From: Escherichia coli
Lineage (GTDB): Bacteria > Pseudomonadota > Gammaproteobacteria > Enterobacterales > Enterobacteriaceae
Strand: one strand, 5' to 3'
NCBI RefSeq assembly: GCF_016903815.1
Contig: NZ_CP069972.1
DNA length: 64,000 bases
Numbering within the stretch: position 1 is the first letter of the stretch; each line of letters opens with the position of its first letter. A program made the translations under genes and the position numbers. Shown piece by piece: positions 16,626 to 35,833 of the stretch. The notes beneath the pieces were generated by a model. The model ran no database searches. It was given only the letters and a program-made list of their open reading frames with translations, and had not been told where the DNA came from.

Positions 16626-16755
16626 AGTCCATTATAGCCTGTTATTTTTGTGCATCATAGTCTTATGCAGACGGCAGAGGCAGGGCGCAGCCCTGCCAGG
16701 AGTCAGTTTTTGATGATAAAATCAGGCTTCAACATTAAACGGAGAGAAAGTGCCA

Positions 16756-17091
16756 ATGGCGTCTAAAAAATTTTACTCAGATGATGACATCCAGCTGGCA
16801 AAAGCTGCTTTATCGGAATTGCCAGACCTCACCGCTCAACGGAAAACATTGCGTGATTTTCTTGATGCCATTCGTGATGACATCATTATCCTGGTAAGGA
16901 CAAAGGGTTATACACTGACAGATGTTCGTGACACGCTCAAAAATGCAGGATATGAAGTAGGAGAGAAAGCACTTCGTGACATTATTCGGGAAGCAGAATC
17001 GAAAAAACCATCCCGCCGTTCTTCCTCTAAAACAGCACCTAAAAAGACAGACTCAGGCAGGAAAGATGGCATCGATATGAACAACAATTGA
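16756..17091 (+). CDS. Hypothetical protein adjacent to oriT (112 aa)
   Basis: ATG at 16756 after GGAGAGA; basic Ser/Lys-rich C-terminal tail; unusually on the + strand for a leading-region gene. Confidence 0.4.
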   Translation: MASKKFYSDDDIQLAKAALSELPDLTAQRKTLRDFLDAIRDDIIILVRTKGYTLTDVRDTLKNAGYEVGEKALRDIIREAESKKPSRRSSSKTAPKKTDSGRKDGIDMNNN

Positions 17092-17176
17092 TGTGACAAT
17101 GTCACATTGTGTTCTGAGATTATGATGATTACAGAAAAAAAAGCCCCGGCATAAATACCTGGGCTTTTCTGTTTAA

Positions 17177-18025
17177 TCAGACTCGTGGCGGCAATGCACC
17201 AGGATAATGCCGTGCAATAATATCATTCAGTTTTTCAACAAGGTCAGAACGCTTAAAGACAATGTGTACGGTCCCTTTCTGGTAGCCACGCACCGTAAAA
17301 TATTCCCCTTCTAACAGCTTACCGACATTGTCACCGTTCCCGAGAAATTCACCATACTGCGCCCCGATGCTGTTCCTGAAGTCAGGAACGTTGCGCCCCT
17401 CCAGCAGATAAAACGGACGTACCAGGTCATCCAGTGCCTCCCGTCCGCTGCAGTCCAGCGTCACACGCCCGTTACTCCAGCGGTACAGTAGGTTTTCAAT
17501 AATTATTTTCTTACCCAGACGGCAGGGATTATTGGTTCTGTAATCCCATGACAATTTCCGGTAGACATCAATCAGCCCCTGTTCAAACGTCTGCATCTTG
17601 CTGGCATTAAGATGGCGGAATGTTGCCAGTACATTGTCCAGGGTGATTTCAGGACAGGTGTCGCTCATCAGCTGGCTGTTCCACTCATCACGCTGGCATG
17701 AACTCATGAAGGTGTACATGCCCGTATCTGTCATCAGGCGGTCCCAGATTTTCCGGTCGGCAAGACGGGTGATATTCCTTTTCGCTTCTTCCGTCTTATC
17801 CATGCGACGAACGGAATCAGTCACGCAGTCTTCAAACCCGTAAAGAAAAATATCACCTGACGCATCGAGCAGAATCTTGCGCGCTGTCGCCAGGCATTCC
17901 ATCGCCTGCATGAACAGTGCAATACCTTCGTTACGCTGCGCGATGATGCGGTCGATAGCTACAGACGGAATAACATCTGTCGTGCCGGCAGTATTCAGGT
18001 CAGCAGTGGGTAAAGTCTGATTCAT
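17177..18025 (-). CDS. Leading-region protein of unknown function (282 aa), first gene behind repeat copy A
   Basis: ATG at 18025 with SD GGAGA; large hairpin repeat immediately upstream; no recognised motif. Confidence 0.55.
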   Translation of the reverse strand: MNQTLPTADLNTAGTTDVIPSVAIDRIIAQRNEGIALFMQAMECLATARKILLDASGDIFLYGFEDCVTDSVRRMDKTEEAKRNITRLADRKIWDRLMTDTGMYTFMSSCQRDEWNSQLMSDTCPEITLDNVLATFRHLNASKMQTFEQGLIDVYRKLSWDYRTNNPCRLGKKIIIENLLYRWSNGRVTLDCSGREALDDLVRPFYLLEGRNVPDFRNSIGAQYGEFLGNGDNVGKLLEGEYFTVRGYQKGTVHIVFKRSDLVEKLNDIIARHYPGALPPRV

Positions 18026-18075
18026 CACATTGTCTCCTCATCGTCACGACTGCCGGGTCAGCCAGGTCATTTCCC

Positions 18076-18386
18076 GGAGGAGCGAAGCTCCTTCTGCCGT
18101 CCGGGTCTTCGGGGATTTCCCCGCAGTGGACCTTTCCGACGGGGGACGCTCACCACGTCACGGGGCAGTTGTCCGGGGGCAGACGCAAAAGTTTTTGACG
18201 CCTGCGGCAAAAAGTTTTGTGGCTGGTACATCTCTCCCCTGGACGACTGAAACGGGATGTGGTCATGTATGTACCCCCGGAAAGTCCGTCTGCGGAGAAC
18301 AGGCCGCAGTGCGGCGGCAGACAGGCAGAGACAGCTGCGCCATCAGGCGCAGTGGCCTTACACACCGTAAGGTGTGCAGGGAGCGC
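18076..18386 (-). promoter_or_regulatory. Family-1 hairpin repeat, copy A (ssDNA-promoter-like, Frpo/ssi-type)
   Basis: Shares about 300 bp with 21469-21964 and 27812-28310, including inverted arms CCCCGCAGTGGACCTTTCC / GGAAAGTCC(A/G)...GGGG and TTGACGC...GCGGCAAAAAGTTTTGTGG. Confidence 0.6.
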
Positions 18387-18501
18387 CGCATACGGCGCGA
18401 CTGAAGAAAAACGACGGCACAACAATGGCATGTGGTGGTCACTGGCACACCACTCCCGCACAGGTGAAAACAGAGAAAACCGCACGACATTTACAACCAA
18501 A

Positions 18502-18594
18502 AAAAGTGAAATTTCTTCACTTTTTCACGCTTATTTTTCGCGTTGATTTGGTGATTATGATGATAAAATAAAGTGAAATTTTTTCACTTTTTCA
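18502..18594. promoter_or_regulatory. Two palindromic operator-like sites overlapping the promoter of the XRE gene
   Basis: AAAAAGTGAA-N5-TTCACTTTTT (18502-18526) and AAAGTGAA-N6-TTCACTTTTT (about 18570-18594) about 70 bp apart, the second abutting the ATG at 18605. Confidence 0.5.
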
Positions 18595-18604
18595 AAGGTG
18601 TTTT

Positions 18605-18856
18605 ATGACCGGCTGGGAACTGCGAATCTGGCGAAAAAGCATGCTCTGGTCACGCGAAAAAGCGGCCAGAGAATTTGGCGTGACGCAGAGAACATGGCAC
18701 GCCTGGGAAAATGCGGAACAGGTGGACGTCACCGTCTGGAGGACCACCCAGGCACTTTCAGTCCGTGACCTGCTGCCTCACATGCAGGGGATGCGTAAGG
18801 CAGATATCATCAGGCGACTGGAAAATGAACTGGGGGAAACGGCAGGGAATGTGTGA
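18605..18856 (+). CDS. Small XRE/Cro-like HTH regulator (83 aa)
   Basis: HTH-like segment WSREKAAREFGVTQRTWHAWE; preceded by paired palindromes; convergent with the Rpn operon. Confidence 0.5.
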   Translation: MTGWELRIWRKSMLWSREKAAREFGVTQRTWHAWENAEQVDVTVWRTTQALSVRDLLPHMQGMRKADIIRRLENELGETAGNV

Positions 18857-18886: not shown

Positions 18887-19069
18887 CTACTGCTCATCAG
18901 GAAACAGCTTTTTCAGTTCTTCACCGGAAAGTCCCGTGACCTCCTGAATCCGTTCCAGCGGCCAGCCTATATCCCGAAGCCGGCAGGCTATTTCCCGCGC
19001 CACTTCAAGAGCCCCTTGTTTAAAACCCTCGTCGAAACCTTTCTGTATAAGACGTTCTGCAATCGTCAT
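18887..19069 (-). CDS. Stand-alone RpnS-like small protein (60 aa), homolog of the Rpn C-terminal domain
   Basis: MTIAERLIQKGFDEGFKQGALEVAREIACRL...TGLSGEELKK aligns with the last 65 aa of the adjacent Rpn; own SD AGGAG; the longer 81-aa ORF would be encoded through the rpn terminator hairpin. Confidence 0.5.
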   Translation of the reverse strand: MTIAERLIQKGFDEGFKQGALEVAREIACRLRDIGWPLERIQEVTGLSGEELKKLFPDEQ

Positions 19070-19131: not shown

Positions 19132-19329
19132 TCAGTGAGTGATTTTCTTCAGTTCGTCATCGGAAAGTCCGGTAGCCTGCTTAATCTGCTCCGGCGTCAT
19201 CCCCATTTTCTGAAGCTGGCACGCAATAGCCAGGGCTTTTTCAAGCGCTCCTTCCATGCGTCCTTCCATGCGTCCTTCCATCCTGCCTTCCTGGCGACCT
19301 TTTTGCTCAAGACGTTCTGCGATAGTCAT
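19132..19329 (-). CDS. Possible intragenic RpnS-like ORF (in-frame internal start, 65 aa)
   Basis: In-frame ATG at 19329 preceded by GAGGAT at -6 to -11 (CATGAGGATAAACTGATG); product corresponds to the Rpn C-terminal domain. Confidence 0.3.
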   Translation of the reverse strand: MTIAERLEQKGRQEGRMEGRMEGRMEGALEKALAIACQLQKMGMTPEQIKQATGLSDDELKKITH

Positions 19330-20058
19330 CAGTTTATCCTCATGCTGCGGCAGACGCTCAGCCAGCGCCCGCATAAATTCCGGTGATACAGAGTCCCCTG
19401 CGTTAACGATGTAATGAATCAGAACACGCACCTGCTCGTCTGAAATTTCCACCATGACCTGCGGGAGTTTGTCCAGCAGCTCCATCATGTCACGATGGCG
19501 GATATGCTTCATCAGCAGCGTCAGTGCGGCCATCCGGCGATGGTTCATGATTTCATTGTCATCAACGACAGTGATATCAACCAGCGGAAACGGCTTTGTG
19601 TATATTTTAGCCGCAAGTGCCGGATTCTCAAAACAGTCCAGCCAGTTCATGCTGTACGGGTACGGGCTGCGCTCACCGTGATAGAACAGCACCGGAATCA
19701 CCAGTGGCAACGTTTTGTGCTGCTCCAGATGTCTCTGCATCGCCGCCACACTGTAGCGTAACATGCGAAAAGGCATGTACAGATTTTCTGTGCTCTGGTG
19801 CTCGATGAGCGTATAAACATAACCATCTTCACCCCCGGTGGTTTTCACGCTCCAGAGGATATCGCTGGCGTACTGATGCAGGTCCGGCTCAACAAAGGTG
19901 GCGGGTTCCAGCTTCAGCGTGGACAGGTCGCACAACTGCCGGTACTCCGCAGGAAGATGCAGTTCCAGAAAATCCCTGGCAACGTCGGGATTCGCCAGGA
20001 ACGACCGGAACGCGGCATCATGCGGCGTGGGCGTTGTGGTGTTTTTCTTCTTACTCAC
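19132..20058 (-). CDS. Rpn family recombination-promoting nuclease (YhgA-like, PDDEXK), 308 aa
   Basis: YhgA-like N-terminal region (LIEHQS...) and conserved C-terminal domain (IAERLEQKG...TGLSDDELKK); GTG start overlapping the stop of the upstream ORF. Confidence 0.6.
   Translation of the reverse strand: MSKKKNTTTPTPHDAAFRSFLANPDVARDFLELHLPAEYRQLCDLSTLKLEPATFVEPDLHQYASDILWSVKTTGGEDGYVYTLIEHQSTENLYMPFRMLRYSVAAMQRHLEQHKTLPLVIPVLFYHGERSPYPYSMNWLDCFENPALAAKIYTKPFPLVDITVVDDNEIMNHRRMAALTLLMKHIRHRDMMELLDKLPQVMVEISDEQVRVLIHYIVNAGDSVSPEFMRALAERLPQHEDKLMTIAERLEQKGRQEGRMEGRMEGRMEGALEKALAIACQLQKMGMTPEQIKQATGLSDDELKKITH
19249..19284. repeat. 12-bp tandem repeat x3 inside rpn (encodes EGRMEGRMEGRM)
   Basis: TCCTTCCATGCG repeated twice plus variant TCCTTCCATCCT; in frame. 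Confidence 0.6.
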
Positions 20059-20444
20059 GGTTCCTCCATCAAATCAGCAGCATCGCAGCAATCATCGCCC
20101 AAATCCCCACAACCGAGAGGACAGCAATTGCGTTCAAAGCCATGACAACAATAGCCGCGTTCTGAGTCACGGCGTATTTCTTCAGCAATCTCTTCTGCGG
20201 AAAGGTAATCAAACTCCTCACGGGCCAGTTCCAGGACCAGTAGATGTTGTTCTGTCGGCAATGTGGCCACAAAATTATCAATAGCAGCACTCAAACGTCG
20301 CTGATATAGCTCATAAACAAGACCACAACGGGGCATTAGTTCTTCGGATAATAGTTCCAGTTTTGAGCGAATTCTGTCAGCGTTGAAAGTGACTTCATCA
20401 AAAGACATATGAAAAGCTTTGTCAGTATCAAAACAAGACTTCAT
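20055..20444 (-). CDS. Hypothetical protein with Cys-rich acidic C-terminus (129 aa), coupled to rpn
   Basis: ATG at 20444 with SD GGAGA; C-terminal CCHGFERNCCPLGCGDLGDDCCD; stop TGA overlaps rpn GTG start (GTGA). Confidence 0.45.
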   Translation of the reverse strand: MKSCFDTDKAFHMSFDEVTFNADRIRSKLELLSEELMPRCGLVYELYQRRLSAAIDNFVATLPTEQHLLVLELAREEFDYLSAEEIAEEIRRDSERGYCCHGFERNCCPLGCGDLGDDCCDAADLMEEP

Positions 20445-20620: not shown

Positions 20621-20887
20621 TCAGTGACAGACCCGTTCAATTTCAAGCGCGCGGAGCAGGTGGCCCCATTCGCTGACTTTCATGGCGGGGATACGTACCC
20701 GCTTCTGCTCACTGCAGCGTCTGGCGATATGACCGCCCATCGCCAGGACGTCCGGGTTAATCTCATCCGGTGCCAGTTCCTGGCGTCTGAAGCGGGTATG
20801 GCGGTGCAGGGGTTTGTTCTCCCGCAGGCACTCTTCACGCAGACGCTTTACATACTCGGCGGTTGCGAAGATAATTGATGGTCTCAT
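20621..20887 (-). CDS. Hypothetical leading-region protein (88 aa)
   Basis: ATG at 20887 with GGAG 9 nt upstream; basic protein; no recognised domain. Confidence 0.4.
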   Translation of the reverse strand: MRPSIIFATAEYVKRLREECLRENKPLHRHTRFRRQELAPDEINPDVLAMGGHIARRCSEQKRVRIPAMKVSEWGHLLRALEIERVCH

Positions 20888-20979: not shown

Positions 20980-21414
20980 TCATTCCGGACAGCGACGCAG
21001 TGCCAGCGCGAGCGCTTTCATCTTCCAGCCTTCCGGCGTGCGGTACATCACCTTCCAGTAGCCGTCGATGAACACATAATGGAAGCGCACCTCTTCAGTG
21101 CTTTCCGTGGCGATGGCCTCCCTGAAAGAACGGTACTCACGCGCCTCACTGTCCATCCGGAAACCACTGTCACGTCCGTAATAAGCCGTCACACCGTCCA
21201 CCGGGTTCTGAAGCGTATGCCCGGCGGGTTTGTCGCAACGGGGACCGAGGCAACGGATATCACCGTGTTCAACCAGGGCTTCGGCCTGCTGACCGGTGGC
21301 ATAGTGGGTATGCAGGATGCGACCGTTCCAGGTCGGCTCACCGTGCAGGTGGCAGTAAACGGTACGGAACACCCCGTCGCGGCAAAAAACGGAAATCGTG
21401 CTGCTGACTGTCAT
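20980..21414 (-). CDS. Hypothetical leading-region protein (144 aa) behind repeat copy B
   Basis: ATG at 21414 with SD GGAGA; the longer 251-aa ORF in the track reads through the GC-rich repeat and is rejected. Confidence 0.5.
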   Translation of the reverse strand: MTVSSTISVFCRDGVFRTVYCHLHGEPTWNGRILHTHYATGQQAEALVEHGDIRCLGPRCDKPAGHTLQNPVDGVTAYYGRDSGFRMDSEAREYRSFREAIATESTEEVRFHYVFIDGYWKVMYRTPEGWKMKALALALRRCPE

Positions 21415-21468
21415 GAAAACGTCTCCTTCTGCTGAATCAGGTCGCCGGGCCGACCGGTTGCTCCCCCG

Positions 21469-21964
21469 GAGGGGCGAAAGCCCCTTCTGCCGTCCACTTC
21501 TTCGGGGTTTCTCCCCGCAGTGGACCTTTCCGATGGGGCAGCGACTGCCACGGCACGGGGCAGTTGTCCGGGGGCAGACGCAAAAGTTTTTGACGCTTGC
21601 GGCAAAAAGTTTTGTGGCTGGTACATCTCTCCCCTGGACGGCTGAAACGTGTTGTGGCCGCTTCAGCCCCCGGAAAGTCCACAGCGGGGAAACAGGCCGC
21701 AGGGGGGGCGGCGGAAGGGCAGACAACTGCGCCATCAGGCGCAGTTTCCTTACACACCGTCAGGTGTGCAGGGAGCGCAGGTCACGGCGCGACAGAGGCG
21801 GCGCGACCGGAACGGTCGCTGCAAGCCTGGTTTTTCAGACATCGGACCGTAGCGGCAGCCCGAAACCGCGCCAGCGGGTTCGGCGGAGACTGGCGGGTGC
21901 GCCAGCAGCTGCCTGTCGGAGTCGGGCCTGACGACCGGATGCCGCCAGGCAGCCGGGAGCCGAA
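21469..21964 (-). promoter_or_regulatory. Family-1 hairpin repeat, copy B
   Basis: About 500 bp shared with copy C and about 300 bp with copy A; long imperfect inverted repeats. Confidence 0.6.
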
Positions 21965-22146
21965 GGGTGTCCCCGCCCCCGGGAGTCAGAACAACAGAAA
22001 CGACAAAACAGAAAAATGCCTCACACTATGACAGGCAGGAAGGGTAGCGCCGCAGGCGCGGCCCTCCTGTATTTCAGGCAGGCGTAAGCCTGCCAGGGTT
22101 TTCCGGGGGCCTGGCAGGCCATCCCCCCGCCGGAGCGGGGAGTAAA

Positions 22147-22647
22147 TCACCGACGGAACACATGACCGTCAATAAAGGTGAAGGAGTCCAGGAATAAATC
22201 CCGCGCATACGCCTCATAGTCAAAATAGAGCGCCACCGTCTCCGGCACGTCAGCCAGCAGGCCGGTATCACTGACGAACTCAACCGCAAAAGCCTCCTCA
22301 CTGTCAGCCTCGCCCCACCAGGCATCGCGGAAGCTGTCAAAATCCGTCTCACCGGTATCATCCACCCAGAGACGATAAGCCTCTTCGCAGCCTTCATCCC
22401 GCGCCTGGCGGAAGCCTTCAACCCAGGCCCAGTTGATATGGCATTCAGAGGCCATATTCCCCGGGAATCCCTCATAATCCTGAAACATCAGTTCCGGGTC
22501 GGTTTCATCCTGGTGAAGGGCACGGCAGGCGGCGAAAAAGTCGCGTTCATCATCAAACGTTGTCAGGTCAAACCAGCGGCCAGCGATGCTTCCACAGTTG
22601 TATTTGTGCCAGGTTCCAACGTATACAGCAGGTGCAACAACAGACAT
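22147..22647 (-). CDS. ardA: Antirestriction protein ArdA (166 aa)
   Basis: MSVVAPAVYVGTWHKYNCGSIAGRWFDLTTFDDE...; acidic; SD GGAGGA; matches ColIb-P9 ArdA (recollection). Confidence 0.85.
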   Translation of the reverse strand: MSVVAPAVYVGTWHKYNCGSIAGRWFDLTTFDDERDFFAACRALHQDETDPELMFQDYEGFPGNMASECHINWAWVEGFRQARDEGCEEAYRLWVDDTGETDFDSFRDAWWGEADSEEAFAVEFVSDTGLLADVPETVALYFDYEAYARDLFLDSFTFIDGHVFRR

Positions 22648-22659
22648 TCCCGAATCCTC

Positions 22660-22992
22660 CATAGTCACATGTTCTGCGACACCGGGCGGTGCCGTGCCTC
22701 CATCTTTGCCGGGCCTGCAGGGATGCAAGGGCGCAAGGGAAGCCGCAGCCCGACGCACACGGCTGGCGGGAGTTGGAGGGTGAGACCGCGAAATCTGAGC
22801 GGGTGAACGACCGGAAAATCACGGCAGACGGGAAGGAGGGACCGGGTGACCGCAGCGGTTCATCTTACCTTGCATCCCGCCCGCAGAAGCCCGGCTACGA
22901 TGGAGGCACGGCACAGCCCGCACACGACACGGCGGCCACATAACTGAAAACCCACAAGGCCATGCCCCGCATGGCCGGGTAAAAGCGGAGCC
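22660..22992 (-). promoter_or_regulatory. Family-2 hairpin repeat, copy 1 (upstream of ardA)
   Basis: About 330 bp nearly identical to 31955-32286; about 45-nt inverted arms (GTGCCGTGCCTCCATC...GATGGAGGCACGGCAC) separated by about 150 nt. Confidence 0.6.
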
Positions 22993-23108
22993 GGCGGCGA
23001 CGTCCTTATTCCGGCGAGAGCAGGGAGCACACCGCATGATCTCCAGACCACCCCTGGAACGAAACGATCATGACCGGCATGTCCCTGCGTAAAATATACA
23101 TGCCTGGT

Positions 23109-23705
23109 TCACCGGAGAATATCTGTGATATCCACAAGTTTTCTGTCGCGCAGCCAGTCCTGCGCTTCACGCACCACACAACTGTCCGGTTTCACCGCTT
23201 TCAGCGATGATGCCAGTCGCTTGATCAACATCACCAGTTCCCGTGTCTGTATGTCCGGCATTGTCTCCGGCGGAGCAGGGGGACTCTCATTTCCGACGCT
23301 CATCCCATGCGCTTCCAGTGTGGCACGGACAAACCAGGCGGCATCGACCAGTTGCTGTCCAATCCAGGCCAGATCGGCATTTCTGTCACGGGCTGCCATT
23401 CGCTCGCCCGACAGCGCCTTGCTGATATGGCTGCGCACCAGATTATCCAGGAGTGCCTGCGCTTCTTCCGGTGAAAAGCCACCTGGTATCTCTGTGCGCA
23501 ACAGCCCTTTCCTGTACAGAAGCTGCAGCAGATCAACCTGCGACCGCACAGCAACTATCAGTACATAACGGACAACATTCGCACTGGCAGTGGTTTCTGT
23601 ATCATTCAGCAGTTCTTCCGGATCGTTCCCCCCGGTGTTGCAGAGCAACGGCAACAGAGGTCGCATCCACGCGGGAACCTGGTATTTTTCGTCTGATTTC
23701 ATCAT
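23109..23705 (-). CDS. Hypothetical protein (198 aa), translationally coupled to psiA
   Basis: ATG at 23705 overlaps psiA stop (ATGATGA); SD GGAGAA; no recognised domain. Confidence 0.5.
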   Translation of the reverse strand: MMKSDEKYQVPAWMRPLLPLLCNTGGNDPEELLNDTETTASANVVRYVLIVAVRSQVDLLQLLYRKGLLRTEIPGGFSPEEAQALLDNLVRSHISKALSGERMAARDRNADLAWIGQQLVDAAWFVRATLEAHGMSVGNESPPAPPETMPDIQTRELVMLIKRLASSLKAVKPDSCVVREAQDWLRDRKLVDITDILR

Positions 23706-24421
23706 ATTACGTTCTCCAGCTTGTTCGGGATCATCCACTGCTCAAGTGCACGTACCTGTACCGGTGCACCACGACCGGCCTCACCGGCTTCAAAAATCAG
23801 CCGCCAGAGTGGTTCCTCCTGCCAGAAAAACCGGTCAAATGATGACAGTGATGGAAAACGCCCGCACCACCCCCAGAAAATCGTTTCCAGATCATGCTCC
23901 TCAACAACACCAGACCAGCGGGACAACCAGCTTCCGACCGTGGCGGGAGTATGAAACGCAAGGTCAATCTGCGCCTGAGCAAAACATGTCTGGTATTCCA
24001 GTTCCCGTCGTTCTGCCTCACGTTCCCGCTGGCGGCTGTATTTCTGCTCTGTCAGCGTGGTTTTCTGACGACGACGCTCACCTTCACGAAAAGGCACGGA
24101 CGGGAACAGACGGTGCCCCGCATCGGATGGCAGGGGAAGAACACAGACTTCCCCAAAACTTTCAATCAGTTTATCCACGGCAGCCAGCCACAGGAGACGG
24201 TTGCCATGAAATTCCTCCTTCGTCAGCGCAGGGGCAAAAAAGCGGAGATCGGTCAGCGAAATCCGGCGACTGCCATTCAGGCAGCGAAAGAAAGCGGTGG
24301 CATAAGGCCATGCTGAAAGTGTGCGTCCCTGACGACGACGTTGTTCTGTGACAGCCACCGCCTGCATGGCGGCCTGTTGTTCTGCGCTGAGGGGGATCAG
24401 TGCCCGTGAACGTGCGCTCAT
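23702..24421 (-). CDS. psiA: Plasmid SOS inhibition protein PsiA (239 aa)
   Basis: [53 protein letters not shown]...; ATGA overlap with psiB stop. Confidence 0.85.
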
Positions 24422-24852
24422 GCCTGACCTCCTTCTGCCATCAGGATATGGATGATGTCGTTAACACTGTATCCCTGCGCATCCAGTGTCGCGGCAAGCG
24501 CCAGCGTGTGACTGATCGCGACAGGCGTGAAGATATGTTGCACCTGAACGACGGCGAAAGGCTGTCCACCACCATTCACCAGAACCAGCATCCAGAGCTG
24601 AGAGACGTCTCCCGGCGAACATAATGCCAGGTGGAAACGTTCGTGGGCTGGCGTGAAACGAACCTGGACGGGGAAAAAGCCCCCGAACTCACTGCCATAC
24701 TCTCCGTTCATCACCCAGTTAGCCGGTGCGTCCACTTCACGCATCACCTCGTGAGTGAGATTACGGCGCATATCGCTTCCCGCAGCACGGATATCTTCAT
24801 ATTCCTGTGCGTTCATGGACTGCAGGGCATTCAGGGTCAGTTCAGTTTTCAT
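24418..24852 (-). CDS. psiB: Plasmid SOS inhibition protein PsiB (144 aa)
   Basis: [40 protein letters not shown]...; SD AGGGAG. Confidence 0.9.
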
Positions 24853-26923: not shown

Positions 26924-27157
26924 TTACTTAAGAATCCCGAAATCCCTGATGTACTGGTTCATCCAGTACCCGGCACAGTCCTCAAAATTCCAGGAGCGCC
27001 AGATCAACGTGCCATCCTGACGGACAACCAGGCGAAAATGCGTTCCCTGATCATCCTCGATAAAGACGTTCCGGTACTGTGCGGCAACGGCTTCCGCCTG
27101 TTCGCGGGTAAAGGAGCCGTCCGGCAGTCCCTGAAGTATTCTGAAATATTCGCTCAT
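26924..27157 (-). CDS. Small hypothetical leading-region protein (77 aa)
   Basis: ATG at 27157 with GGAG 8 nt upstream; between ssb and the ParB-like gene. Confidence 0.45.
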
Positions 27158-27742: not shown

Positions 27743-27811
27743 AAGAACCTCCTGACTGAAAGATGTGAGATAAACCGGATACCGGCGACGGGACGTTCAT
27801 GTGCCCCTTCA

Positions 27812-28310
27812 GAGGAGCGAAAGCTCCTCCTGCCGTCCACTTCACAGGGGTTTCTCCCCGCAGTGGACCTTTCCGATGGGGGCCCGTTTACCGCCTCACG
27901 GGGCAGCTGTCCGGGGGCGGACGCAAAATTTTTTGCCGGGTTCATGGCTAAAAATTTTGTGGCCGGTGCATCTCACCCTGGACAGATGGAACGGGAGGGG
28001 GTTACGTCTGCCCCCCGGAAAGTCCACAGCGGGGAAACAGGCCGCAGGGGGGGCGGCAGGAGGGAGGACTGCTGCGCCATCAGGCGCAGTTTCCTCACAC
28101 ACCGTCAGGTGTGCAGGGAGCGCAGGTCACGGCGCGACAGGGGCGGCGCGACCGGAACGGTCGCTGCAAGCCCGGGTTTTCACGCATCGGACCGTAGCGG
28201 CAGCCCGAAACCGCGCCAGCGGGTTCGGCGGAGACTGGCGGGTGCGCCAGCAGCTGCCCGTCGGAGTCGGGCCTGACGACCGGATGCCGCCAGGCAGCCG
28301 GGAGCCGAAG
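27812..28310 (-). promoter_or_regulatory. Family-1 hairpin repeat, copy C (upstream of ssb)
   Basis: Near-identical to copy B over about 500 bp; homology ends at about 28310, right where the group II intron begins. Confidence 0.6.
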
Positions 28311-28316
28311 TGGGCG

Positions 28317-30650
28317 GTGCGACAGGAAGTCGCTTAACGTATTGTTTTACATTGATAAAACCAGCTATCCCATTAGCTGTAGCCTACCGGGACAGGCGTT
28401 GCCGGCAACGGCGGGGTCTGAAGCTCCCGGGACAACGAGAGCCGGGCGTCAGCCCGGGTAATGCCCCGTGAGGGGCTTTACCTTGCTGCAAGCATCATGC
28501 GGCAGGAGAGCAAGGCTGGTCAGAAGGGTTAACACATGTGAACTGTTGATAAACACCGTTATCGGCAACAGGCCAAAGATGCTGACAGGCCTGAACCAAA
28601 AGGTACGGGGTCCGGTTGCTACCTCGCGCACAGGGAGCACATGGGCGCAGAGACCCCCGGTGAAGAGACAGAACCCGCCCTGACCCTCTGTATGTTAAGC
28701 GGAACCTGGTAAACCCGTATCGCTGCCTCACAGGCAGGTGAACCGCAAGGAACACTGTTAGCGGTGCGGGCATAGGAGGACGGAAAAAGCGAATGCCCGG
28801 CTGTAATAACCGGGATACGGGGCAGGTTCCCCGACGCGAAAGCGGGCAGACTTCCGTCTGGTCTTTAATTGCATGAAAAGCTGTAAAGCAGTCAAAAGGA
28901 TATCAGCGAGATGAATACACACATCAGTGTGTCCACGATACCCCACCCGACAGGCTGGCACACCATAAACTGGAAAGCATGCCATGCCCGGGTGCGAAAG
29001 CTACAGTTACGGATTGCAAAGGCAACCCGACAGCAACAATGGCGGCAGGTCAGAGAACTACAGCGCATCCTCACCCGCTCATTCTCCGGCAAAGCCGTGG
29101 CTGTCAGGCGTGTAACTGAAAATACCGGTAAAAGGACACCCGGTATTGACGGAAAAATATGGCACACACCGAAGGAGAAATGGGAAGGAATATGCAGCCT
29201 GAATCTGTGTGGTTACAGGCCACAGCCACTACGGCGAATACATATCCCAAAATCAAACGGCAAAACGCGACCGCTGGGCATACCCACAATGAGGGACCGG
29301 GCCATGCAGGCACTGTGGCTGCTGGCTCTGGAACCCGTATCCGAGACCACTGCTGACCATAACAGCTATGGTTTCAGACCAATGCGCAGCACGCATGACG
29401 CCATTGAGTCCATTTTTCTGCGGATGAGCCAGAAAGTATCGCCCAAATGGATACTGGAGGGCGATATTAAAGGGTGCTTCGATAACATCAGCCATGACTG
29501 GCTGCTTTCCCATATTCCGATGGACAGGAGACTGCTTAAAAAATGGTTGAAAGCAGGTTACATGGAAAGAGGCGTGTTTAACCATACGAACAGCGGGACA
29601 CCGCAGGGAGGCATCATATCCCCTGTTCTCGCCAACATGGCTCTGGACGGACTGGAGAAGGAACTGATGCAAACGTTCAGGAAAAGTGGTTATCACAGTG
29701 CAAAGCACCAGGTGAATTATGTGAGATATGCTGATGATTTCATCTGTTCAGGCAGCTCCCGTGAATTGCTGGAAAATGAGGTCAGACCACTGATTGCAGC
29801 TTTCATGCGCGAACGAGGGCTGGAACTGTCGGAAGAAAAAACAGCGATCACACATATAGATAAAGGCTTCGACTTTTTAGGGCAGAACGTCAGGAAGTAC
29901 AACGGTAAAATGCTGATTAAACCGTCGAAGAAAAACCTGAAGAACTTCCTCTGTAAAGTCAGAGAAATAATTAAACGCAATCCGACGCTCCCGGCATGGA
30001 AACTGATAGGCCAGCTAAACCCGGTGATCCGGGGATGGGCTACCTATCACCGACACGTCGTGGCGAAAGAAACATTTAATTATGTCGACACCCAAATCTG
30101 GCGAGCTATATGGCGATGGTGTGTAAGACGGCATCCCCGGAAAGGATTGCGGTGGATCGCCGGACGATACTTCTCCTTTGAAGGCAGGCGCTGGATCTTT
30201 AAAGCCATAACCCCGGAAGGGAAAATTCTGACACTCTTCCGGGCAATGGAAACACCGATAAAGCGCCATATAAAAATCAAAGGCGAAGCAACACCATACA
30301 CCCCCGGAATGGAAATCTACTTTGAACGTCGTCTGGATCTAATCTGGAAAGGCAAATCAAAGAAGATGAAGACAGTAGTTCAACTCTGGAAGAGGCAGGG
30401 GAAACACTGTCCGCAGTGCGGACAACTCATAACCAACCAGACCGGATGGAATATACATCACCGGATCAGGAAAGTTATGGGCGGCAGTGACGAACTGACC
30501 AATCTCGAGTTGTTACATCCGAACTGCCACCGACAGTTACACAGCAGGGAAGCCGGTGCTCACCGAAAGCACTTATAAAGGCTTGAGCGGAGTGCGGGGA
30601 AACTCGCACGCTCCGTTCTTAGGGGGCGGCGGCGCAGCAATGTGCCGCTG
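28317..30650 (+). mobile_element. Group II intron (about 2.3 kb) with intron-encoded RT/maturase/HNH protein
   Basis: 5' GTGCG at 28317; about 590 nt of upstream structured RNA; ORF in domain IV; domain V hairpin GAGCGGAGTGCGGGGAAACTCGCACGCTCCGTTC at 30585-30618; 3' end approximate. Confidence 0.75.
28911..30578 (+). CDS. Group II intron-encoded protein: reverse transcriptase, maturase, HNH endonuclease (555 aa)
   Basis: RT motifs (GIDG, YADD) and C-terminal Cys/His HNH segment (CPQCGQ...HHRIRKVMGGSD...HPNCH). Confidence 0.85.
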   Translation: MNTHISVSTIPHPTGWHTINWKACHARVRKLQLRIAKATRQQQWRQVRELQRILTRSFSGKAVAVRRVTENTGKRTPGIDGKIWHTPKEKWEGICSLNLCGYRPQPLRRIHIPKSNGKTRPLGIPTMRDRAMQALWLLALEPVSETTADHNSYGFRPMRSTHDAIESIFLRMSQKVSPKWILEGDIKGCFDNISHDWLLSHIPMDRRLLKKWLKAGYMERGVFNHTNSGTPQGGIISPVLANMALDGLEKELMQTFRKSGYHSAKHQVNYVRYADDFICSGSSRELLENEVRPLIAAFMRERGLELSEEKTAITHIDKGFDFLGQNVRKYNGKMLIKPSKKNLKNFLCKVREIIKRNPTLPAWKLIGQLNPVIRGWATYHRHVVAKETFNYVDTQIWRAIWRWCVRRHPRKGLRWIAGRYFSFEGRRWIFKAITPEGKILTLFRAMETPIKRHIKIKGEATPYTPGMEIYFERRLDLIWKGKSKKMKTVVQLWKRQGKHCPQCGQLITNQTGWNIHHRIRKVMGGSDELTNLELLHPNCHRQLHSREAGAHRKHL

Positions 30651-30856
30651 CTACCCGACCAATAAAAGACAGCCAGAAACGGTGACAGTGTCACGGAATA
30701 TCACACCTGTTCCCTGCATACAGCCATACACTACCTTCTGACCGGAAAGCCGGGCCGGCAGCGCCGCAGGCGCTGCACCCCGCGTTTCCGGCAGGCGTCA
30801 GCCTGCCAGGGGTTTTCGCGCGGGCTGACAGGCGGCCTCCACCGCCTGCCCCTGTA

Positions 30857-31048
30857 TCACCTGTTTCTGCTGCCCTGAAGGATGTAGTGACCGCCCAGGA
30901 AAACCGCCTGCTGATTCGCCACAAAATCGCAGATTTCATCAACAATCTGCGCGGTGGTGAGCGGTTTCTGCCCCATTTCACGACGCCGCGCATTAATCAC
31001 GGCCCTGTAATTACGCAGAATTTCGCGGGTTTCTGTGCTGATATTCAT
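30857..31048 (-). CDS. Small hypothetical leading-region protein (63 aa)
   Basis: ATG overlaps stop of upstream ORF (ATGA); SD GGAGA. Confidence 0.4.
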   Translation of the reverse strand: MNISTETREILRNYRAVINARRREMGQKPLTTAQIVDEICDFVANQQAVFLGGHYILQGSRNR

Positions 31049-31467
31049 GACATCGTCTCCCCGTCCAGCGCCTGCAACACAACGTCCATTGCTTCGAGTT
31101 CCTCCCTGACGAATGCGTCACCGTCGCCCCCGTTCTCACTCCCGACGGCATACAGGCGCTTCATTTCACTACCTGCCAGCGCCATCACTTTTTCCAGCAT
31201 CACCGCCGGGACTGTCACATGACGGCTGGCGCGCTTTTCTTCCATCAGTTCATTGACAATATCGGAAACAACTCTGTCACATGCGCCATATACAAAAGCA
31301 TCGTCCAGCCGCTGCATGACGGTTTCCAGCTCATCGTCTGACAGGTTCCAGTCCTGGGCTATGTGACGCACATCCCCACGGGTCAGCACCACGGCAAAAA
31401 CGCATTCACTGTCCGGCACGTCTGTATCCAGTACATCGCGGATGATTTCTTTAACAGTACAGTACAT
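31045..31467 (-). CDS. Hypothetical leading-region protein (140 aa), paralog of 33170-33604
   Basis: SD AAAGGAGA; shares the LSDxEixTVxxRLxD segment and overall pattern with the 144-aa ORF at 33170-33604. Confidence 0.5.
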   Translation of the reverse strand: MYCTVKEIIRDVLDTDVPDSECVFAVVLTRGDVRHIAQDWNLSDDELETVMQRLDDAFVYGACDRVVSDIVNELMEEKRASRHVTVPAVMLEKVMALAGSEMKRLYAVGSENGGDGDAFVREELEAMDVVLQALDGETMS

Positions 31468-31513: not shown

Positions 31514-31939
31514 TCAGTCAAGTGCCGCGTAAATCGCGTTGCATTCGGGGTGAAATTCGATGTGGCTCCACAACTGCGCATCACGCATCCTGTACAGGTG
31601 TGTCAACCCTGCATCCCCGCTGTCGTGGTACAGCCACAACTGGCGGTTAATCACAAGGGAGGTAAGGATGATGCCTGCGGCATCAGCGCTCACGGTACGG
31701 TCAAACCAGTTTGCACCGTTCACCATGTGGAAACGGTCGCCATCCGGCATCATGTAACCGCCACCGTCCGGCAGGCGGATGAAGTGCCAGAATCCGCCTT
31801 CATATTCCGGCATCATTTTTTTCGCCAGCGCGTATACAGACGCTTCGGCATACAGAAAATCCAGGCCAAACAGGTAAGGCAGAAAAGACAGACGGTCGCA
31901 CTCTTCAACGTTCAGAGTGACAGGTTTCGCATATTGCAT
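31514..31939 (-). CDS. KlcA/ArdB-like antirestriction protein (141 aa)
   Basis: Size and sequence character of the KlcA/ArdB family; sits behind the same hairpin repeat family that precedes ardA; SD GGAGGA. Confidence 0.55.
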
Positions 31940-31954
31940 GATGTTTTCCTCCGT

Positions 31955-32286
31955 TGTTCACATATTCCGCGACACCGGGCGGTGCCGTGCCTCCATCTTT
32001 GCCGGGCCTGCAGGGTTGCAAGGGCGCAAGGGAAGCCGCAGCCTGACGCGCACGGCTGACGGGAGTTGAAGGGTGAGACCGCGAAATCTGAGCGGGTGAA
32101 CGACCGGAAAATCACGGCAGACGGGAAGGAGGGACCGGGTGACCGCAGCGGTTCACCTTACCTTGCAACCCGCCCGCAGAAGCCCGGCTACGATGGAGGC
32201 ACGGCACAGCCCGCACACGGCGCTGAGGCCACATAACTGAAAACCCACAAGGCCATGCCCCGCATGGCCGGGTAAAGCGGAGCCTG
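31955..32286 (-). promoter_or_regulatory. Family-2 hairpin repeat, copy 2 (upstream of klcA-like gene)
   Basis: Near-identical to 22660-22992. Confidence 0.6.
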
Positions 32287-32354
32287 CGGCGACATCCTTT
32301 TGCTCTTTCCGGGGACCGGCTGGAAAAGGCGGAGATTTTTCCCCGCCAGCGTCA

Positions 32355-33125
32355 TCATTTCCGGATTTTCGCCAGTGCATCCGCCATGCTGCGGATTTCA
32401 GTCCGGGCTTCCAGGACCACCTCCCGCAGAATATCCCGGTCAAACCAGCGACGGGACGGTTCATCCGGTATACGCAGCACATCGCAGGCCAGCCCACTGG
32501 ACAGGATATGCTCCACACACTCACTGACCAGATACATTTCCACCGACGAAAAACGAGCGCCCCGGTTCAGGATGGCATCGAGCACCACGGGCAGGTTTTC
32601 GTCGTCTTCATCGAGCCAGCAGGGGTGATCGCTTTCCTTCACAACCAGGCGAAAGCGGCGCGTCTGGCGGGTCAGCAACGTCTGACCGGTTGTGGTCAGC
32701 GCCGCCCTGATACGCCGCGCATCTTCTGCCACCCGGCAACTGACACTGCGTACCGCATCGTGCACCGCATCAAGAACTGCCCTGATTTCGTCTTCGGTCA
32801 GCCATTCTCCGGCATACGGGAAAGACACCTGCGTTCCGTCTGCCGGAAGTACCGGCAGCGACTGCCACTGACTGCCGGACAGAACAAGTTCCGCCCCGGT
32901 TCCGGTCAGTTTCTGAATGGCAGAGGCCAGGAGCGGCGGCAGTACGCCGCCGTGACGGTTGATAAGTAACGTCGCCAGCCGGGGCGCATCCAGCAGAACA
33001 TAAATGCTGATCCAGCCCGGATACTTCGGGTTACGCTGGTCAACATCCGTCTCTTCCGGCCAGCCCTGCGCCAGCAGCAGGTTACGGGCGTGGCGACAAA
33101 TCAGTGCATTCAGCGTTTCGTTCAT
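32355..33125 (-). CDS. Hypothetical leading-region protein (256 aa)
   Basis: ATG at 33125 with GGGAGA upstream; no recognised domain. Confidence 0.45.
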
Positions 33126-33169: not shown

Positions 33170-33604
33170 TCAGTCGTTTTCGCGTGTGTTGTTTTTCAGC
33201 AGGGCGCGGGCCTGATTAACCACCGCCTGTCGGCGGGTGACGCATTCCGGGACGGCGAGGCCGTTATCACGGGCGGCCCACTCACGTTTCCACAGTGCCT
33301 GTTCGGCGGTCTGAATCAGGGACGCCAGCAGTTCAGCAGGGACGGTCACCTGGCGGTTTTCTCTCACGTTATTGATGATCTCCATCGCCGCACCGGAAGA
33401 AATACCGGATTCAGTCCGCTGGTCTTCCGGGATGTCCTCCAGGCGCGCCAGGACAGTCCTGATTTCATGATCGGACAGGGAAATATCCATTCCGTCAGCG
33501 AGGGCCTGAATTTCTTCCGGGGACCAGATAACCAGCATCAGCGGCGTATCTCCCGGATACTTTGCTGCCAGCGCCCGGCAGAGCGTTTCGCATGTTCCGT
33601 ACAT
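33170..33604 (-). CDS. Hypothetical leading-region protein (144 aa), paralog of 31045-31467
   Basis: SD AAGGAGA; similar to the 140-aa ORF. Confidence 0.5.
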   Translation of the reverse strand: MYGTCETLCRALAAKYPGDTPLMLVIWSPEEIQALADGMDISLSDHEIRTVLARLEDIPEDQRTESGISSGAAMEIINNVRENRQVTVPAELLASLIQTAEQALWKREWAARDNGLAVPECVTRRQAVVNQARALLKNNTREND

Positions 33605-33617
33605 TCTCGTCTCCTTC

Positions 33618-33839
33618 TCAATCTTTGAAGCAGGAATCCAGTTCCAGAATTTCGGTATACGCTTCCATGAACAGGCGATTGGCGCGATACAGCGTCTGGC
33701 GTGTCAGGCGTTCAACAAGCACATCGGAATCAAAGCGACAGCGATGCTCCATATCGTTCAGCCTGGCCCGAAGGTCACACATGGTGTTGGCCACCTCCGC
33801 CACGTCGGCGCGAAGTTTTTCGTGTCCGGCATAGTTCAT
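33618..33839 (-). CDS. Small hypothetical protein (73 aa) downstream of the methyltransferase
   Basis: ATG directly after the methyltransferase stop (TAAATG); SD CCGGAGG. Confidence 0.4.
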   Translation of the reverse strand: MNYAGHEKLRADVAEVANTMCDLRARLNDMEHRCRFDSDVLVERLTRQTLYRANRLFMEAYTEILELDSCFKD

Positions 33840-34523
33840 TTACGCAGCCTCCGGTTCAAACCAGTTATCATTCGCGGCCCCCTGCTGCATGGCCCGTTGC
33901 ACGGCGGTCAGTCGTTGCTGTCCGGCACGGTGATACTGTTCAAGCAGCTCGATACCGATATACCGGCGTCCGGACTGAAGAGCGGCCACGCAGGTTGATC
34001 CGCTGCCTGCAAACGGGTCCAGCACAATCGCGTTCGGATGTGTGAAGCTCTCAATCAGTGGTTGCAGGCTGGTAACGGGCTTTTCCGTCGGGTGATGGCG
34101 ATTGCCCGAATATTTCCAGCCCAGCACGTCCGGCAGCGGGTTTTGTGGCAGACGTGGACGGCCTTTTGCCAGGATGTAGGCACATTCGTGGCGATAGCCC
34201 ACATATGCGGCCTTCGATGTGTAGTTTTTGGTGAAGACCAGGTGACCAACAACGCTGAATCCCGCATTTTTCCAGGCAGACATAAAACGATCGACGCGAT
34301 TCCAGCCATAGAAGCTCACCATTAACGCGTCTTTTTTGAGTACGCGGTACATCTCATTACAGGCCGGTTGCAGCCATTCATCGGTTTTATCGCCGGCAAT
34401 GGTACGCCCCTGACGGTCACGAAAACCGACGAGGTACGGCGGGTCGGTGAGGATGAAATCAATGGCGTTATCAGGGATACGGGCCATAACATCGATGCAG
34501 TTACCGAGGACAAAACGGGACAT
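33840..34523 (-). CDS. Orphan DNA methyltransferase, DPPY motif (227 aa)
   Basis: Catalytic motif IV DPPY (FILTDPPYL) and AdoMet motif (LDPFAGSGST); no adjacent restriction endonuclease gene. Confidence 0.75.
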   Translation of the reverse strand: MSRFVLGNCIDVMARIPDNAIDFILTDPPYLVGFRDRQGRTIAGDKTDEWLQPACNEMYRVLKKDALMVSFYGWNRVDRFMSAWKNAGFSVVGHLVFTKNYTSKAAYVGYRHECAYILAKGRPRLPQNPLPDVLGWKYSGNRHHPTEKPVTSLQPLIESFTHPNAIVLDPFAGSGSTCVAALQSGRRYIGIELLEQYHRAGQQRLTAVQRAMQQGAANDNWFEPEAA

Positions 34524-34876
34524 ACCAAACTCCTTCTCTTACAGAGGGCACCGGGAGGGCACCCCTGTGGTGCCCGTTCCCCGCTGCCTGTGGGCTGTTC
34601 ACCGCGTCCGGTAACGGGTCAGGCCGACCGTGGAATACCGCAGCCGTCGTCTTTTTGACGGCAAGGCTATGCCGCGAAAGCGGCTTGAAGGGCGTTCATC
34701 AGAAAAGGGCGACGGGCTGGCGTACACTGTCACCGACGCCAGCCGGGAGCGGTAAAAGCGCCCGTCCCGTGCCCGGCCGGACGCGGACACTGACCACAGG
34801 CAGCGTTTATGCCGCGCCGCGTCAGCCGGCGCAGTAAAAAGAGGAGCACGGCGACATCCTTTACCGGAAAAGAAAC

Positions 34877-34900
34877 GGGCGGTTGCCCGCCCGTCTCCGT
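34877..34900 (-). terminator. Intrinsic terminator after the 308-aa ORF
   Basis: Minus-strand hairpin ACGGGCGGGCAACCGCCCGT followed by a U-rich tract. Confidence 0.45.
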
Positions 34901-34906
34901 CATACT

Positions 34907-35833
34907 TCATCCGCCATAATGCGCCACATTGTCGATTATCCACGCAGGTCCGGTGACTTCCGGCAGCTCATCATCATCTGTCGGGGAAGACCATTCCAGT
35001 TCCCCCCACAGCACATCAACGAGCTCTCCGCGCTCATACAACTGCCAGCCACAGAAATTGCAGCCCTGTTCGGCGTACCAGTGCTCCAGCGTGCAGCCGA
35101 AACGGCGGCTTAATTCTGCAACAACGTCGCTTTCCGGCTGACACCACGGCGTGTCGAAATCTACCTGAATGAAGTTTTCCCCCTGACTGCTGATATTCAG
35201 GTCATACCCACAAGGCCACTTCACGCCATACCGTTCTGTATACCAGTGATATGCAGAAGGAACACCGTTCAGAACACCGCCGTTAAAGCCATTCACTTCA
35301 ATATCCAGGCGGGTCGGCAAAACCGTCAGCAGGTCAAACGGCATGGTTTTTTCCGGCAGTACGTTGTCACACAGACGGTTCCACCACACCGATACATCCT
35401 CGTTACCCCAGATGTCACACCAGTCACCTCTTTTTGCGGTGAAATGCACAGTGATAGTTTCCCTGACATCATCCGGTAACTCTTCCCAGCGACGCTGTCC
35501 AGTACCGCTCTGCAGCCAGAGTTCATGCAGCATCAGGCAGTTTTGCTCATCCAGCAGTACACCGTTCTGCAGGTGTGTCAGCCAGCGGGTGAACGCGATA
35601 TTTTCCGGTGATACAGCACCACGTCCGGCAGCCGTCACTCCGGGGCACTGCTCAGAGCGGATATTTTCAGTGATCTGCAGAAGTCCGGCACTTCCGGCCA
35701 GAAACAGCTGAATACCTTCATTTGTGGCGCGGCGATAAAGCGGTGTAACTGCACCGCTGGCCAGTCGTTTAATCTCAGCGATCTGTGCCGGTTCACCAGA
35801 AAAATACATACGATTCGAGCACCAGTTTGGCAT
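34907..35833 (-). CDS. Hypothetical leading-region protein (308 aa)
   Basis: ATG at 35833 with SD GGAG 8 nt upstream; Trp/Cys-rich; no recognised domain. Confidence 0.5.
   Translation of the reverse strand: MPNWCSNRMYFSGEPAQIAEIKRLASGAVTPLYRRATNEGIQLFLAGSAGLLQITENIRSEQCPGVTAAGRGAVSPENIAFTRWLTHLQNGVLLDEQNCLMLHELWLQSGTGQRRWEELPDDVRETITVHFTAKRGDWCDIWGNEDVSVWWNRLCDNVLPEKTMPFDLLTVLPTRLDIEVNGFNGGVLNGVPSAYHWYTERYGVKWPCGYDLNISSQGENFIQVDFDTPWCQPESDVVAELSRRFGCTLEHWYAEQGCNFCGWQLYERGELVDVLWGELEWSSPTDDDELPEVTGPAWIIDNVAHYGG

Follow-up and report, generated by a model that had tools for sequence, protein, structure and literature searches.

The leading region of R64/ColIb-P9 is reportedly induced in the zygote, as found by Bates/Althorpe et al. 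in 1999. The present report concerns the corresponding region, at 16.7-36 kb, of a 64,000-nucleotide stretch of Escherichia coli DNA (the window; contig NZ_CP069972.1 of RefSeq assembly GCF_016903815.1), and in particular twelve minus-strand open reading frames (ORFs) that lie there among known anti-defence genes. An earlier note on this DNA had called these ORFs unannotatable and had proposed several of them as candidate anti-defence genes. Leading regions have been described as anti-defence islands bounded by the origin of transfer (oriT) and umuDC, in which these ORF families are enriched and encoded mainly on the T-strand, and anti-defence roles have been proposed for them; establishment in defended recipients declines when an anti-CRISPR is moved out of the leading region or inverted (Samuel et al. 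2024, PMC11541004). The window very probably contains a leading region with twelve real early-establishment genes, eleven of them situated behind single-strand promoters, and we consider it rather probable that at least one of the twelve encodes a true anti-defence protein.

The plasmid pESBL of E. coli O104:H4, whose ORFs were numbered Hp8-Hp22 by Yamaichi et al. 2015 (PMC4288162), shares gene order and orientation with the window, and all twelve ORFs have orthologues in it at 77-100% amino-acid identity. According to Wen et al. 2025 (PMC12672017), six leading-region operons of pESBL are induced up to ~500-fold within 15 minutes in transconjugants, and transcription starts determined by 5' rapid amplification of cDNA ends (5' RACE) lie at hairpin promoters of class 1 (ssi1-3/Frpo), class 2 (ardA, klcA) and class 3 (M.EcoGIX). 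Two differences separate the plasmids: a 2343-bp group II intron is found in the window only, and the numbers of four-residue repeats in Rpn and in a small RpnS-like ORF are not the same. Another relative, pDETEC47, carries a parM insert that is absent from the window.

The leading region of the F plasmid contains Frpo1/2, the genes ssb-yfjA-yfjB-psiB-psiA, and klcA and methylase operons. It shares the 77-, 63-, 140-, 256-, 144- (DUF1380) and 73-aa ORFs with the window at 80-98% identity and the class-2 and class-3 promoter regions at 88-96%. On the other hand, the F stretch examined has no match to the 282-, 129-, 88-, 144- ('PndC') and 198-aa ORFs or to ardA, and F carries the first half of DUF1281 only, with hok/flm and DUF932 genes instead. 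In IncN plasmids (pKM101/R46), whose backbone differs (MOBF, MPF_T), CcgAII, like the 129-aa ORF of the window, is found near oriT and just downstream of ardA; the protein of the window has an extra Cys-rich acidic tail. The ccg genes of IncN are controlled by CUP repeats and the ArdK/ArdR repressors, and ssi hairpins are not known there.

The twelve ORFs and the single-strand promoters

Between 13.4 and 38 kb the window holds nikB, nikA, oriT, a long minus-strand gene run and then plus-strand impC/umuD/umuC-like genes, which begin past 36.2 kb and point opposite to the ORF run. The oriT of this IncI1 transfer system (16539-16619) has 85.5% identity over 83 nt to the annotated oriT of pESBL, with nikA and nikB directly below it; therefore the plus strand is the transferred strand and 16.7-36 kb the leading region. 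The plus strand enters 5' first, from oriT towards higher coordinates. More than 5000 plasmid records match the 19-kb stretch. At least 80% of it is covered in 274 of them, which come almost exclusively from Escherichia, Salmonella, Klebsiella and Shigella. The best-matching plasmids are typed IncI1/B/O, MOBP and MPF_I and have an identical gene order. On this sequence evidence the region is assigned to an IncI1 (R64/ColIb-P9/pESBL-type) conjugative resistance plasmid. Like the islands of Samuel et al., it is bounded by oriT and an opposite-oriented umuDC-like operon, and it contains ArdA, KlcA, PsiAB, SSB, an orphan methylase and many uncharacterised families; it is one instance of such islands, with no difference in kind, and no anti-CRISPR homologue was detected in the window. 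The earlier note was thus right about the known anti-defence genes (ArdA, KlcA, PsiAB, SSB and the M.EcoGIX-type methylase).

All twelve ORFs were located between oriT and impC at the lengths reported before, on the minus strand and pointing towards oriT, so that the transferred strand is their template. The good ribosome-binding sites and overlapping stops and starts noted earlier are present as well: each ORF has an ATG start with a GGAG core shortly upstream, and there are 4-nt overlaps between psiA and the 198-aa ORF (ATGA), between the 140- and 63-aa ORFs and between the 129-aa ORF and rpn, while the methylase and the 73-aa ORF abut with a gap of zero. The ratio of non-synonymous to synonymous substitution rates (dN/dS) was calculated against four related plasmids (pDETEC47, pESBL-EA11, F and the IncI-gamma/K1 plasmid pEC014). 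It is 0.07-0.45 in 11 of the 12 ORFs, which equals the range of ardA, psiB, klcA, ssb and the methylase. The 129-aa ORF has too few substitutions for such a calculation, and its support comes instead from 55-57% identity to IncN CcgAII over approximately residues 20-106. The ORFs recur in hundreds to thousands of plasmid records. Where the earlier note had allowed for a lack of conservation, conservation was thus found, both within the IncI group and, for the 129-aa ORF (~56% identity), across IncI and IncN. The comparison indicates that the twelve ORFs are real, conserved protein genes under purifying selection.

Six plus-strand regions in the leading region are homologous to the pESBL promoters, at 88-99% identity. 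Class 1 (ssi/Frpo-type) is represented by a first copy at 18026-18604 (97.9% identical to pESBL; DNA fold z = -8.7), a second at 21415-22146 (repeats D2-D6; 92%) and a third at 27743-28316, upstream of ssb (99%; z = -16). Class 2 comprises an ardA copy at 22648-23108 (88.9%), which contains a 300-nt repeat, and a klcA copy at 31940-32354 (repeat D1; 88.7%; z = -4.2). The class-3 hairpin at 34524-34906 is 98.4% identical to pESBL and 96.3% to F (z = -7.1). The classes are also apparent as intergenic repeats: one family has three copies (18153-18404, 21443-21965 and 27786-28310), another has two copies of 300 nt (22665-22964 and 31958-32257) that are 96% identical to each other, and the class-3 region is a single unique stretch. 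Four of the six regions were folded as plus-strand single-stranded DNA, and all four were far more stable than shuffled sequences (z from -4.2 to -16). Conventional sigma-70 consensus sites occur at background frequency (13 against an expected 9.3), and the gene strand carries none in the intergenic regions that precede these operons.

Positions relative to these promoters suggest six operons, with gaps of -4 to 176 nt within them and of 383-861 nt, occupied by the hairpins, between them; several ORFs are coupled to or abut a neighbour, and the others lie 13-176 nt downstream of one. The class-3 promoter is followed by the methylase, the 73-aa ORF (Hp9; 33618-33839; dN/dS 0.13-0.21), which abuts the methylase stop, the 144-aa DUF1380 ORF (YcgB, Hp10; 33170-33604; dN/dS 0.18-0.24) and the 256-aa ORF (YchA, Hp11; 32355-33125; dN/dS 0.12-0.22). 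A class-2 operon contains klcA, the 140-aa ORF (Hp12; 31045-31467; dN/dS 0.31-0.37) and the 63-aa ORF (Hp13; 30857-31048; 98% identical in F, dN/dS 0.09-0.28). Behind the third class-1 copy are ssb, the 77-aa ORF (YfjA/YubL, Hp14; 26924-27157; 80.5% identical to its F orthologue, dN/dS 0.37), herB, psiB, psiA and the 198-aa ORF (YgaA, Hp15; 23109-23705; dN/dS 0.27), which is translationally coupled to psiA. The other class-2 promoter precedes ardA alone. The second class-1 copy precedes the 144-aa ORF labelled 'PndC' in databases (Hp16; 20980-21414) as first gene, the basic 88-aa ORF (Hp17; 20621-20887; dN/dS 0.08-0.45), the 129-aa ORF (Hp18; 20055-20444), rpn and the small RpnS-like ORF. The 282-aa ORF (YdiA/YgfB, Hp22 of pESBL; 17177-18025) is the sole gene behind the oriT-proximal class-1 promoter. 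Eleven of the twelve ORFs are therefore placed behind homologues of single-strand promoters.

The following course of events is consistent with this layout. After a nick at oriT (~16.54-16.62 kb) the plus strand would enter 5' first, and the 16.7-36 kb segment would arrive first and single-stranded. Six long hairpins (three of class 1, two of class 2 and one of class 3) would then rebuild duplex promoters on the entering strand, from which the host RNA polymerase would transcribe six operons in the direction of oriT, up to the time when the complementary strand has been synthesised. The twelve ORFs would in that case probably encode early 'establishment' proteins, produced as a burst upon arrival in the recipient. 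Gene reality, selection, layout and the homology and folding of the promoters were analysed here; induction and start sites are taken from the pESBL/F papers, and every biochemical function proposed for the twelve is one that we infer.

Family assignments of the ORFs

The description of the ORFs as unannotatable holds only in part and goes too far. Six of them belong to named families (DUF4942, DUF905, two of DUF1380, DUF1281/Api92 and a CcgAII-like family), all without known function. The Pfam scan gave no family for the 256-, 198-, 144- ('PndC'), 88-, 73- and 63-aa ORFs, and the NCBIfam scan gave none for any of the twelve. Only function-less families were matched in PHROGs (phrog_4830 for the 73-aa ORF, for example), apart from a match of DUF4942 to a 'DNA methyltransferase' family; the 88-aa ORF had no family match in Pfam, NCBIfam or PHROGs. 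PADLOC returned just two marginal short matches, to a 2TM effector (E 0.0017) and to PRTase_III-A (E 5e-4), which were judged to be noise. A literature search found no functional work on DUF4942, DUF1380, DUF905, DUF1281 or CcgAII, and no anti-defence assay of the ORFs.

In Supplementary Table 1 of Samuel et al. 2024 (PMC11541004), the top 30 families include, as 'Uncharacterized' and by name or domain, DUF905 at rank 2, DUF1380 at ranks 7 and 14, YchA at rank 10, 'PndC' at rank 23, DUF4942 at rank 24 and DUF1281 at rank 27; other ORFs were paired with ranks by size and position only. The 'ArdA' tag attached to the YchA family in that study was not adopted, as the 256-aa ORF has no similarity to ArdA. 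For YchA 423 relatives were found; the 120 listed ones all have identities of at least 84%, so the family seems to be a narrow one of enterobacterial plasmids.

The 282-aa DUF4942 protein was modelled by AlphaFold2 (AF2) with a predicted local distance difference test score (pLDDT) of 86, as a bundle of helices with a small alpha/beta domain after it. In some databases DUF4942 is called a DNA methyltransferase. The label found no support, as the model has the above architecture in place of a Rossmann-type S-adenosylmethionine-dependent methyltransferase fold and the profile search of the PDB was empty. The PHROG match spans positions 26-286 of a 548-residue profile, a stretch taken to lie outside the methylase domain.

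The 144-aa ORF at 33170-33604 matches DUF1380 (PF07128) with E 1.3e-54 and the 140-aa ORF only weakly, with E<=0.1, and both match phrog_9024. These are the two ORFs regarded earlier as paralogues, and a distant relationship was indeed recovered (27% identity, E 2e-8). The 77-aa ORF matches DUF905 with E 5.2e-35. The 198-aa ORF is present in 2241 plasmid records, and nearly every listed full-length match continues into an annotated psiA.

The 308-aa ORF (Hp8; 34907-35833; dN/dS 0.15-0.30) matches PF06924 (DUF1281; E 1.6e-46) and PF18406 (DUF1281_C; E 1.3e-14), and its residues 3-274 align with PDB 2IJR (Api92; E 3.1e-47). Api92 is a structural-genomics protein, and its structure has no function attached. 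Upstream of this gene, at 35834-36227, is a long imperfect hairpin of the plus strand in single-stranded form (z = -4.9), which is 96-99% conserved in F and pESBL. It could be a seventh single-strand promoter, or a structure around the divergent impC promoter (TTGACT-18-TAGAAT, 36157-36186).

The 129-aa CcgAII-like ORF occurs in 1206 plasmid records. Its product is acidic, with a Cys-rich tail. It is absent from pEC014, which is otherwise collinear. In IncN, ccgAII is situated directly after ardA-ccgAI in the leading region (5962-6282 of the locus compared), so the same gene accompanies ardA in two unrelated conjugation backbones. The isoelectric points (pI) of the 129- and 140-aa proteins are 4.4 and 4.2, and that of ArdA is 4.1; this acidity fits, if weakly, a mimic or a binder.

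The 144-aa ORF at 20980-21414 is annotated as 'post-segregation killing protein PndC', which is a database mislabel. PndC proper is a short translational-coupling frame that overlaps pndA in a pnd/hok type I toxin-antitoxin locus. The identification of the ORF with it was rejected because of the confident globular fold of its product and the class-1 promoter upstream. The orthologous plasmid stretches have no annotated Hok-family gene, and a search of the window for Hok/Sok RNA families was negative; the genuine PndC/PndA locus of pESBL is situated elsewhere, at 79.8 kb. The family comprises 1979 clusters at 50% identity (E<=1e-3), distributed over plasmids, jumbo phages, cyanophages, Firmicutes, Bacteroidota and one archaeon. 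Its 62 phage records include jumbo phages of Cronobacter, Serratia and Erwinia, KVP40-like vibriophages and cyanophages. The motifs YCHWDGY, GHSF, YGRDRG and EYxYxF are near-invariant, and the invariant His, Arg, Asp and Tyr residues resemble an active or ligand-binding site. The AF2 model has a pLDDT of 96.6 and a predicted template modelling score (pTM) of 0.90. The family is not covered by any Pfam entry, nor does it have a solved structural relative. Searches of the PDB by sequence and by profile returned nothing for it or for DUF4942, and a search of AFDB50 yielded uncharacterised proteins only, beyond the plasmids' own 'PndC'-labelled entries. Distant relatives occur in phages, in clusters of small genes without known function, and one relative with 43% identity has an ArdC gene nearby; this context is suggestive, not decisive. 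Longer members show single cases of fusion to WYL_2 and to a gp32-like domain, too sparse for interpretation. The protein could be an enzyme or a sponge that entering mobile elements express first.

Possible anti-defence and other roles in establishment

The twelve ORFs are conserved, under selection and apparently co-transcribed with ArdA, KlcA, PsiB, SSB and the methylase from promoters active on the single strand as it comes in, and the candidate label given to several of them is therefore reasonable. Several points weigh against an anti-defence function. None of the twelve matched a known anti-defence or defence family in Pfam, NCBIfam, PADLOC or PHROGs; profile searches had been named in the earlier note as a way of checking the proposal, and the Pfam run recovered no anti-defence family. 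The two confident structure models, of the 282-aa and 144-aa ('PndC') proteins, have no solved relative. In transposon sequencing (Tn-seq) of pESBL, Hp8-Hp22 all proved dispensable, both for plasmid maintenance and for transfer into E. coli K-12 (PMC4288162). In the same experiment ArdA, KlcA, PsiB and M.EcoGIX were also non-essential; M.EcoGIX is of importance where the recipient has restriction systems (PMC4288162). As to expression, the 308-aa DUF1281 gene is upstream of the class-3 promoter and outside the six operons, and operon membership of the others is read from position. No -35/-10 boxes of at least 8/12 matches were found in sensible positions on either strand of the six hairpin regions, so the promoter assignment relies on the published 5' RACE. 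Finally, HerB, the product of a gene of the ssb operon, reprograms host transcription and metabolism, and no anti-defence role has been described for it (PMC13370423); anti-defence is thus not the sole option for genes of leading regions. Given the lack of anti-defence homology, solved relatives and a Tn-seq phenotype, the argument for anti-defence is one of guilt by association. The proposal of the earlier note is accordingly upheld with regard to conservation and to operons shared with anti-defence genes, and it gains nothing from family matches or from Tn-seq.

Among the ORFs, the very acidic products of the 129-aa CcgAII-like and 140-aa DUF1380 genes are the most plausible binding or mimic-type inhibitors. 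The remaining ORFs may act on host physiology or on incoming DNA. That one or more of the ORFs founds a new counter-defence family seems rather unlikely; the 144-aa 'PndC' and the RpnS-like ORF would be the candidates. The anti-defence hypothesis for these families is already known (Samuel et al. 2024, PMC11541004), and a published question has been found again in this plasmid, with no new concept added. IncI1 plasmids are major carriers of extended-spectrum beta-lactamase genes, and whether a plasmid persists after entry into a new host is decided by the proteins of the first minutes. Few uncharacterised genes of plasmid leading regions are as abundant as those of these ORF families. If a function were found for any of them, in anti-defence or in host reprogramming, part of plasmid host range would be explained, and a target against the spread of resistance could result.

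The strongest alternative, to which we give a serious though lesser chance, is that most of the twelve are other establishment factors, which might act on host transcription or metabolism, on the incoming strand (protection, priming, circularisation) or in the tuning of SOS and replication, as HerB, SSB and PsiB do. HerB/YfjB, whose gene shares an operon with the 77- and 198-aa ORFs, binds to the chromosome of the host and compensates for the cost of plasmid acquisition (PMC13370423). The 198-aa ORF is coupled to psiA and directly follows it in the listed full-length plasmid matches, the rare WYL_2 and gp32-like DNA-binding fusions of the 144-aa family hint at work on nucleic acids, and the searches for anti-defence homology were negative. 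However, leading regions are statistically enriched for anti-defence genes, several of the ORFs share an operon with KlcA or the methylase, CcgAII is located beside ArdA in IncN, and the strong acidity of two of the proteins resembles that of DNA-mimic inhibitors. The two readings are not exclusive, and different ORFs could belong to each.

It is improbable that the ORFs are merely housed in the leading region as accessory or selfish cargo, such as toxin-antitoxin modules or defence modules that help the plasmid later, by keeping out phages or rival elements, and have no role in entry. The Rpn toxin-antitoxin/defence gene and the RpnS-like ORF in the operon of the 144- ('PndC'), 88- and 129-aa ORFs would suit this explanation, and a plasmid-borne Rpn, RpnP2, protects against T-even phages (PMC10327210); moreover, close IncI plasmids differ in whether they carry the 129-aa ORF, and a group II intron has also landed here. 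On the other hand, all twelve ORFs are oriented with the transferred strand as template, the location of eleven of them behind single-strand promoters argues for selection on early expression, and PADLOC offers nothing beyond its two marginal short matches (E 5e-4, 2e-3). As for chance or decaying frames that encode no functional protein in a GC-rich, hairpin-rich region, the 165 ORFs of at least 50 aa in the six frames, the database 'genes' here that are clearly hairpin artefacts and the lack of a Tn-seq phenotype are outweighed by a dN/dS far under 1 in eleven ORFs, ~56% identity of the twelfth across IncI and IncN, a GGAG site in all twelve together with translational coupling, two confident AF2 models (pLDDT 86 and 96.6), one family of ~2000 clusters across phyla and one with a crystal structure, and this explanation is effectively refuted.

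Neighbouring genes and insertions

The known neighbours are all encoded on the minus strand. The anti-restriction gene ardA (22147-22647) is annotated as such in matching plasmids and has 97-98% identity to its orthologues. The SOS inhibition genes psiA and psiB (23702-24852) and the plasmid ssb (27215-27742) were assigned from the annotation of matching plasmids and from orthologue identities. The klcA/ardB-type anti-restriction gene (31514-31939) is so annotated and matches a PHROG anti-restriction family (E 5.9e-20). The orphan adenine methyltransferase of M.EcoGIX type (33840-34523) matches NCBIfam NF010253 (E 7.9e-151) and is 93% identical to M.EcoGIX of pESBL. The ParB-like protein (24907-26865) is the equivalent of YfjB/HerB and is 90.6% identical to its F-plasmid counterpart. 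It had been described earlier as a ParB-like nuclease; the ParB-like part of that description stands, and the protein, YfjB, has meanwhile been characterised and renamed HerB, a CTP-binding ParB-like clamp on the host chromosome that rewires metabolism and lowers the cost of acquisition (PMC13370423).

Two minus-strand genes of the second class-1 operon were not among the twelve ORFs. One encodes a 308-aa Rpn/YhgA-like nuclease (Hp19; 19132-20058; Pfam Transposase_31, E 2.3e-78; NCBIfam Rpn family). The other is the RpnS-like ORF (Hp20; 18887-19069) of 60 aa, or 81 aa from a far ATG, which matches the C-terminal end of TIGR01784. It shares 51% identity (E 6e-15) with residues 244-306 of the Rpn next to it, in the C-terminal RpnS or intragenic antitoxin part. 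Hypervariable four-residue repeats are present in both, and their numbers change independently among IncI plasmids: the RpnS-like ORF counts 2 units in the window, as in pEC014, against 4 in pESBL and pDETEC47. The repeat number of an RpnS must match that of its RpnL (PMC10327210), and the free copy might therefore target another Rpn, for example that of the recipient. The RpnS-like ORF could thus be an orphan antitoxin that disarms an Rpn nuclease defence of the recipient, i.e. an anti-defence gene.

Several long database 'proteins' look like frames through the promoter hairpins (e.g. 21415-21735 and 34599-34943), and hence like annotation artefacts. Examples are a 251-aa extension of the 144-aa ORF, fusions named DUF1472 and a 103-aa 'hypothetical' protein over the class-3 promoter of pESBL.

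Three plus-strand ORFs, within 16750-17091 and 18374-18856, break the otherwise uniform minus-strand orientation; because of it, they cannot be expressed from the incoming single strand. The ORF next to oriT (113 aa) bears the database name 'molybdopterin-guanine dinucleotide biosynthesis protein MobC', almost certainly a misnomer. The two others encode an HTH_31 regulator of 83 aa and a product of 65 aa.

The group II intron (2343 bp; 28317-30659, plus strand; Rfam RF02012 and RF00029) contains ltrA at 28911-30578 and is no part of the leading-region programme. Its insertion is clean, the site being empty and contiguous in pESBL and pEC014. It is separated by 6 bp from the class-1 promoter repeat that precedes ssb, has sense orientation on the transferred strand, and interrupts no gene while putting 2.3 kb between the klcA operon and the ssb promoter.

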